Shown here: in pieces, positions 13,411 to 13,602 of the stretch | Layout of the letters: every line of letters starts with the position of its first letter | How positions within the stretch are numbered: position 1 is the first letter of the stretch | Virus record (IMG/VR): IMGVR_UViG_2531839474_000010 | Location: 1-30,959 of that record | DNA: 30,959 bases | Direction: 5' to 3' (one strand) | Source: a virus | Lineage: Duplodnaviria > Heunggongvirae > Uroviricota > Caudoviricetes | Made by a program: the position numbers and the translations under genes | Notes under the pieces: model-generated | Told to the model about the DNA's origin: nothing | The model's database searches: none | What the model saw: only the letters and a program-made list of their open reading frames with translations

Positions 13411-13602
13411 ATCCGCGCGCGCATATTGAAGCGTGACAAAGGCCTGTGTCAGTTATGTCTGCGTGCTGGTGTGGTGCGTGAGGCGAAAACCGTTGACCAC
13501 ATCATCCCTAAAGCGCATGGCGGCACCGATGCAGACAGTAATCTGCAGAGCCTGTGCTGGCCGTGCCATAAGGCGAAGACGGCCCGTGAACGGCTAAAGT
13601 GA
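13411..13602 (+). pseudogene. 3' fragment of a phage HNH endonuclease gene, 5' end removed at the IS junction
   Basis: Open frame from the IS right end reading IRARILKRDKGLCQLCLRAGVVREAKTVDHIIPKAHGGTDADSNLQSLCWPCHKAKTARERLK*; CxxC...H...CxxCH is the HNH motif. No in-frame start codon; lies just upstream of the terminase small subunit as in HK97-like phages. Confidence 0.7.

Follow-up and report, generated by a model that had tools for sequence, protein, structure and literature searches.

In the classification of Xu & Gupta, HNH endonucleases of Group 1 carry an N-terminal zinc ribbon, whereas those of Group 3, which includes HK97 gp74, have none (PMC3592412). GVE2 HNHE and N.phiGamma are zinc-ribbon HNH nicking endonucleases of Group 1 (PMC3592412; PMC5304195). 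HK97 gp74 promotes cos cleavage together with TerL, as described in a passage of PMC9410871 that cites Kala 2014, and HrdP, a lactococcal homologue, is essential for infective virions (PMC12967558). Serotype-converting phages of the SfV-like type and related phages and prophages share one HNH gene, represented by SfV orf53, SfI, SfII, SfIV orf54, ST64B sb56, SKA5 WQM42292 and E. coli WP_001140097. It is the last gene of the late region, placed before cos and a P27-family terS. The SfIV paper speculated that the orf54 HNH protein controls the timing of lysis (PMC3851460). By analogy, a role as terminase partner is far more likely for the SfV-type protein than one as lysis timer, in view of later work on packaging and of the conserved gene order beside cos.

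The locus described here is a truncated copy of this gene. The window, that is the whole stretch of 30,959 nt that was analysed, holds a prophage related to SfV, SfI and ST64B seated at proA/thrW in an E. coli/Shigella chromosome. Chromosomal proA (1-1254) forms the left end of the window and is followed by tRNA-Thr(CGU) at 1369-1444, the thrW attachment site, and by the prophage integrase gene at 1459-2622 on the minus strand. The proA/tRNA-Thr(CGU) locus is the attachment site for SfI, SfV and their relatives (PMC3636060 for SfI). Positions 1-2622 are 100% identical to E. coli DAM and ANT, both of which carry an undeleted prophage at this site. The early region of the prophage is lambda-like, its head and packaging module HK97-like and its contractile tail Mu-like. 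A 535-aa protein with a SIR2_2 domain is encoded on the minus strand (7097-8704), in the interval from the kil-like gene to the S24 repressor gene. PADLOC matches this gene over its full length to the candidate defence family PDC-S25 (E=1.3e-235), with a weaker match to the ThsA-type SIR2, and the otherwise near-identical DAM prophage has a BamE-like gene in its place.

The HNH remnant lies at 13409-13602 on the plus strand and consists of codons 54-116 and the stop codon, the final 63 codons of a gene for a 116-aa zinc-ribbon HNH endonuclease. Its first whole codon is ATC at 13411, and translation of 13411-13602 gives IRARILKRDKGLCQLCLRAGVVREAKTVDHIIPKAHGGTDADSNLQSLCWPCHKAKTARERLK followed by the stop. 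The motifs CQLC, DHIIP and CWPCH, on which the original prediction of an HNH core rested, are all present. The retained part covers positions 1-47 of the 47 in the Pfam HNH model PF01844 (E=7e-17, 61.8 bits against a cut-off of 21.4 bits), a match far beyond chance. The fragment has D82-H83, N97 and H106, which do not vary within the family, so that the ββα-Me catalytic motif (D-H...N...H) is retained. The [CxxC]2 zinc site is also kept, as CQLC (residues 66-69) and CWPC (residues 102-105), whose cysteines are the counterparts of C76, C79, C114 and C117 in GVE2 HNHE. A full catalytic core is therefore observed directly. From 13407 onward the remnant is 100% identical at the nucleotide level to the E. 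coli DAM copy (locus L003:14001-14354), and its protein is 98-100% identical to SfV-like phage and prophage homologues over the 63 retained residues. Similarity to intact HNH genes begins at 13407-13409, two bases (CA) being ambiguous.

Downstream of the remnant the packaging region appears undisturbed. The intact cohesive end of the SfI/SfV type, TGCCCGCCCC, lies at 13668-13677 on the plus strand as the sole exact match in the window, 65 bp past the HNH stop codon and 50 bp ahead of the terS ATG. The 10-nt SfI cohesive end TGCCCGCCCC was determined experimentally (PMC3636060), and the SfI record terminates exactly at the cos position. The small terminase subunit gene terS (13728-14222, plus strand), of the P27 family (Terminase_4) by Pfam, has a Shine-Dalgarno sequence AGGAG at 13715-13719 and an ATG at 13728, and appears intact. 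So does terL (14219-15952, plus strand), which encodes 577 aa with TerL_ATPase and TerL_nuclease domains, as judged from Pfam on the identical gene in locus L004 and from the DAM RefSeq annotation. A portal gene (16146-17387, plus strand) and then genes for an HK97-type prohead protease and a major capsid protein follow, and the Pfam series downstream of cos reads Terminase_4, TerL, Phage_portal, Peptidase_S78 and Phage_capsid. The remnant occupies the cos-adjacent place ahead of terS, terL and portal that is typical of packaging-type HNH genes. Translation, Pfam and synteny together bear out the original prediction of an orphaned HNH 3′ fragment with an insertion sequence (IS) before it and cos, terS and terL after it. 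The coordinates proposed for it, 13411-13602, are correct to within 2 nt, the IS ending at 13408 and homology starting at 13407-13409. The observation of a truncated HNH gene is confirmed, and the interpretation placed upon it is partly supported overall.

The extent of the loss can be measured against the intact family. In phage SKA5 and E. coli DAM the gene is 351 nt long and encodes 116 aa. Among the best 120 cluster representatives across Enterobacterales, 63 have exactly this length, nearly all the others fall at 115-122 aa, and query coverage is usually 97-100%. Because intact homologues are mostly 116 aa long, the fragment lacks 53 N-terminal residues, which supplies the estimate called for by the original prediction. 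The right junction falls at nt 157/158 of the gene, and the 157 nt absent from the remnant include the ATG, which in the intact gene has a GGAG 6-9 nt upstream of it as part of its ribosome-binding site. Coding sequence for the HNH N-terminus was not found elsewhere in the window. The lost part comprises the zinc ribbon (residues 1-30), the linker and the first five residues of the helix at 49-61. The ribbon, of the form CxxxxC...CxxH, is built on C9, C14, C25 and H28, which are invariant in 34 diverse family members. The SfV-like copies are complete and lie downstream of lysis and bor genes, whereas the copy in the window has lost codons 1-53 along with its ribosome-binding site and promoter context, and has an IS upstream.

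That the short frame is instead a complete gene, natural to a family of short HNH proteins, has virtually no probability. Its one encouragement is the annotation of Salmonella phage 118970_sal3, which gives a 40-aa 'HNH endonuclease' at the same locus, and that case is one gene split into two ORFs. The remnant is 100% identical in nucleotides to the 116-aa genes up to the IS end, where the identity stops, and no natural form of about 60 aa occurs among the best 120 representatives, 63 of which are exactly 116 aa long. A natural short HNH gene was ruled out by homology that runs unbroken to the IS end. In the 118970_sal3 record itself (NC_031940, locus L002:2878-3188) the HNH gene is annotated as a 47-aa hypothetical protein and the 40-aa 'HNH endonuclease', which points to either a frameshift or a sequencing error there.

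Judged by alignment, GVE2 HNHE and N.phiGamma are the nearest characterised relatives of the intact family. GVE2 HNHE (PDB 5H0M) aligns with it end to end from residue 1, ribbon included (E=3e-12). The two enzymes share with it the CxxxxC...CxxH ribbon, the [CxxC]2 site, the HNH motif and a gene position next to cos and terminase, while identity is only about 35-38%. HK97 gp74, in contrast, aligns only from residue 45 of the intact protein (38% identity over 65 aa, E=8e-11), the aligned part being the YGSxW helix and the first half of the HNH core. It has no N-terminal zinc ribbon, an insertion after DHIxP, a zinc site made of CxxC plus CxxH, and a long C-terminal extension, although its gene likewise stands just upstream of cos, terS and terL in an HK97-type head module. 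The intact family has the ribbon and is without the gp74 insertion and C-terminal tail, which separates it from the gp74-type proteins of Group 3 and places it in Group 1. The remnant, which starts at residue 54, has kept the [CxxC]2 site of Group 1 and lost the ribbon, and as a coding sequence it is incomplete, the 5′ 157 nt with the Shine-Dalgarno sequence and ATG being absent. On its sequence it is best classed as a pseudogene of the packaging-associated HNH class and not as a functional member.

The comparison with HK97 gp74 that was originally proposed for estimating the missing N-terminus does yield an alignment, from residue 45, but as a ruler it would give about 14 missing residues against the true 53. 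HK97 gp74 is the wrong yardstick for the enterobacterial P27/SfV-type HNH proteins. The role in cos cleavage that had been ascribed to the gene as an HK97-like HNH protein is documented for gp74 and HrdP, but the gene does not have the gp74 architecture. The functional analogy with gp74, as a putative HNH partner of an HK97-type cos terminase, still stands.

The element to the left of the remnant is a complete IS3-family insertion sequence of 1,310 bp on the plus strand (12099-13408), which we take to be IS629/IS1203. It is recognised as this type by its inverted repeats, its Pfam domains and its likeness to E. coli copies. The terminal inverted repeats of 25 nt (12099-12123 and 13384-13408) are 88% complementary. 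On the plus strand orfA (12153-12479) carries HTH_Tnp_1, and orfB (12479-13366), which overlaps it, carries rve, HTH_21 and rve_3. RefSeq E. coli copies annotated as 'IS3-like element IS1203 family transposase' are 96-99.9% identical. On the other side of the element lies a lambda-P-like replication gene (11424-12101, plus strand; Phage_lambda_P, E=4.8e-62) that is clipped at its 3′ end. It encodes 225 aa against 233 in the intact protein, the final eight codons (FGLKGASV) are gone, and the left end of the IS provides its TGA stop at 12099-12101. Alignment to the intact DAM P gene ends at 12098/12099. Both junctions are thus read directly, as is the absence of a target-site duplication, the left flank being AAG and the right flank GTA.

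Insertion of IS629 normally duplicates 3-4 bp (PMC3271280). In a survey of O157:H7, 26 of 47 IS629 copies had no target duplication; many copies are without duplications after rearrangement, and deletions mediated by IS elements are known to generate diversity (PMC3271280). The missing duplication does not count against the identity of the element, and the IS629/IS1203 prophage rearrangements of E. coli/Shigella likewise hold a complete 1,310-bp element without target duplication. What the missing duplication argues against is a simple insertion, and it argues for a deletion or for recombination between IS copies. In the DAM prophage, an intact relative at proA-thrW, the two sequences that flank the IS stand 7,355 bp apart, and colinearity with the relatives on either side is directly observed. 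The DAM DNA between them holds ren, a NACHT gene, ybcN, ninE, rusA, ylcG and the antiterminator gene Q, followed by holin, lysozyme, Rz, iss/bor and the 5′ end of the HNH gene. Phage SKA5 has the same order of Q, lysis genes, HNH, terS and terL.

These observations point to a single IS629/IS1203-associated deletion that would have fused the 3′ end of P to HNH codon 54, either by intramolecular transposition from one inserted IS or by recombination between two copies. The segment lost would comprise ren, the nin region, Q with the late promoter, holin, lysozyme, Rz, bor/iss and the 5′ 157 nt of the HNH gene; its content of about 7 kb is inferred from intact relatives and not from the true ancestor. 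The original prediction had counted loss of the HNH protein as an independent second hit to the viability of the phage. This is not borne out, since the break in the HNH gene marks one end of a single deletion: the truncation and the loss of Q and lysis genes form one lesion because there is no target duplication and the left flank is the 3′-clipped P gene. The deletion would be recent, given an undamaged catalytic core that matches functional-looking alleles at 100% identity. The remnant is very probably a non-functional pseudogene at the edge of one IS629/IS1203-associated deletion in the prophage. Such a prophage would be unable to make virions, as it would be without Q-dependent late transcription, lysis functions and the HNH terminase partner.

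The deletion has to be weighed against an error of assembly. Two IS629 copies, one at the 3′ end of P and one in the HNH gene, could flank a retained 7-kb segment with Q, the lysis genes and the HNH 5′ part, and could have been collapsed into one; the HNH gene would still be interrupted, but there would be no deletion, and the reciprocal junctions GGGACAGTA with TGAACCGCCCC and GGGGCGGTTCA with AAGTTCGGACTG would be expected. The window is 100% identical to scaffold JH659569.1 of GCA_000261145.1 over the 12.7 kb compared, and that source is a scaffold-level draft in which the junctions span a multicopy IS of 1.3 kb. An independent Logan assembly of SRR314710 also contains the 225-aa clipped P and so reproduces the junction of P with the IS. 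Its contig stops 27 nt into the IS, which indicates that short reads were unable to cross the element. The independent support covers this left junction only, the junction of the IS with HNH being known from the draft alone, and the missing target duplication is equally expected from a collapse. The window, on the other hand, is without Ns and contiguous through the IS, and dropping 7 kb of unique DNA would be an unusual assembler error. The reciprocal product, HNH residues 1-53 running into the left end of IS629, was not found among 5.8 billion protein clusters. HNH partials of 52-53 aa do exist (P0128, P0132 and P0140) and were rejected as reciprocal products, since they belong to assemblies other than the source and stop at contig ends free of IS sequence; branching of the assembly graph between prophage copies with and without a deletion accounts for them better. 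A collapse is on this balance improbable, and a single deletion is the preferred reading.

The 225-aa clipped P, which marks the left junction, was found only in GCA_000261145.1 and in Logan read assemblies (three contigs read). Neither junction was found by megablast in 5,426 complete E. coli genomes, where the best records merely bring P and the IS near each other with 160-340 bp of extra DNA between them, and an exact search of the GTDB species-representative genomes with a 31-mer across the junction of IS and HNH gave 0 matches. The fusion of P, IS and HNH seen here differs in this respect from the known IS629/IS1203 rearrangements, being absent from the 5,426 complete E. coli genomes and the GTDB representatives.

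The signals for expression of the remnant are as incomplete as its coding sequence. The HNH frame has no ATG; it opens at 13354, behind an in-frame TGA at 13351. The original prediction of a frame with no start codon holds for ATG, but a TTG exists at 13426, with no ribosome-binding site. The only other in-frame alternatives are GTG at 13471 and 13474, both 3′ of the first CxxC. No in-frame start yields a complete HNH protein, the longest alternative being the 58-aa ORF from this TTG (13426-13602, plus strand), which was called mechanically in the ORF listing and is judged spurious. The 25 nt upstream of the TTG (GCGGTTCAGTATCCGCGCGCGCATA) hold no purine run resembling a Shine-Dalgarno sequence, no sigma-70-like promoter was found in 13200-13800, and the annotation of the source assembly calls no gene between the IS and terS. 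A translational fusion of orfB with the HNH frame was ruled out: the frames differ, orfB ends at 13366 and the HNH frame has its TGA at 13351. The remnant would appear to be neither transcribed from a promoter of its own nor translated.

The remnant might nonetheless act as a working mini-HNH, a ββα-Me nuclease of 58-63 aa made from the TTG at 13426 or by read-through from the IS. The Pfam core, both CxxC pairs and the catalytic H/N/H residues are all intact, and ribbon-less natural HNH enzymes such as gp74 and its Group 3 exist (PMC3592412). The N-terminal deletions of N.phiGamma offer a closer comparison: the delta-51 protein of 76 aa, with no ribbon, still nicks, and the delta-66 protein of 61 aa has minimal activity (PMC3592412). 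A five-way alignment matches the remnant to delta-60 and the TTG ORF to delta-65/66 (fragment F6), so that the truncation in the window lies between the active and the minimally active construct. A product from the TTG, if translated, would probably be nearly inactive, because the 61-aa C-terminal fragment that is its counterpart has minimal nicking activity. A helix spans residues 49-61 in the AlphaFold prediction for an intact homologue (mean pLDDT 84), and the break after residue 53 cuts through this predicted helix. The absence of a Shine-Dalgarno sequence, promoter and ATG also speaks against such an enzyme; orfB in another frame and the TGA at 13351 make a fusion impossible, and late transcription would be without Q and its promoter. 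A functional mini-HNH is very improbable. Expression of the remnant is unlikely and its activity, if expressed, doubtful, and a non-functional pseudogene remains the preferred reading.

The place at which the gene was broken may itself be of some interest. Other assemblies hold many N-terminal HNH fragments, with breakpoints grouped at codons 46-47 and at 52-55; the IS end in the window falls in the second cluster, at CA^GTATCC (^ marks a junction or a nick). At least six independent deletions that are free of any IS start within the same few bases (six examined at the DNA level, in other contigs of E. coli or metagenomic origin). Their far ends lie in terS, capsid, tail-terminator, sheath, tail-chaperone or tape-measure genes, and every one of the six spans cos. 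Microhomologies of 2-5 nt containing TA(T/C), mostly GTA(T), are seen in all six. The endpoints lie at 13407-13412 in the window and at L008:5158-5164, L012:2539-2541, L020:3157-3160, L021:1316-1335, L022:3139-3144 and L023:1129-1133, and they adjoin (CG)-rich tracts, CAGCGCGG and TATCCGCGCGCGCATA. The latter is a 16-nt near-palindrome with a (CG) run, read from the sequence at 13410-13425 directly to the right of the IS junction. Some 55 nt farther along, at 13465-13472, stands GCTGGTGT, a Chi-like octamer that differs from GCTGGTGG by one mismatch and is oriented to face RecBCD entering from cos. The sample of breakpoints is small and biased, the query having covered HNH residues 1-53 only, and it is rather unlikely, if less so than a collapsed assembly, that HNH nt ~139-163 (codons 46-47 and 52-55) form a genuine break and rejoining hot spot in SfV-like prophages. 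Such a hot spot might be caused by breaks that (CG) structures induce, by repair that follows in-situ cutting of cos, or by a preference of the HNH/terminase complex itself for certain nicking sites. N.phiGamma nicks CG^GT, with a star site CA^GT, and the IS in the window ends at CA^GTATCC. The apparent clustering is a lead and not a finding.

The HNH remnant is an IS-truncated pseudogene produced by ordinary prophage decay. It illustrates that a complete Pfam HNH match is not a complete gene, 53 residues that include a conserved zinc ribbon being absent here. For the thrW prophage it marks a cryptic state in which one IS-associated deletion took control of the late genes together with the lysis genes and half of the HNH gene, its 5′ part, while cos, the terminase genes and those for head and tail show no obvious damage. 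The significance of the remnant extends little beyond annotation, and the clustering of breakpoints is the only wider lead; if real, a clustering of endpoints across unrelated cryptic prophages would bear on how prophages become inactivated.
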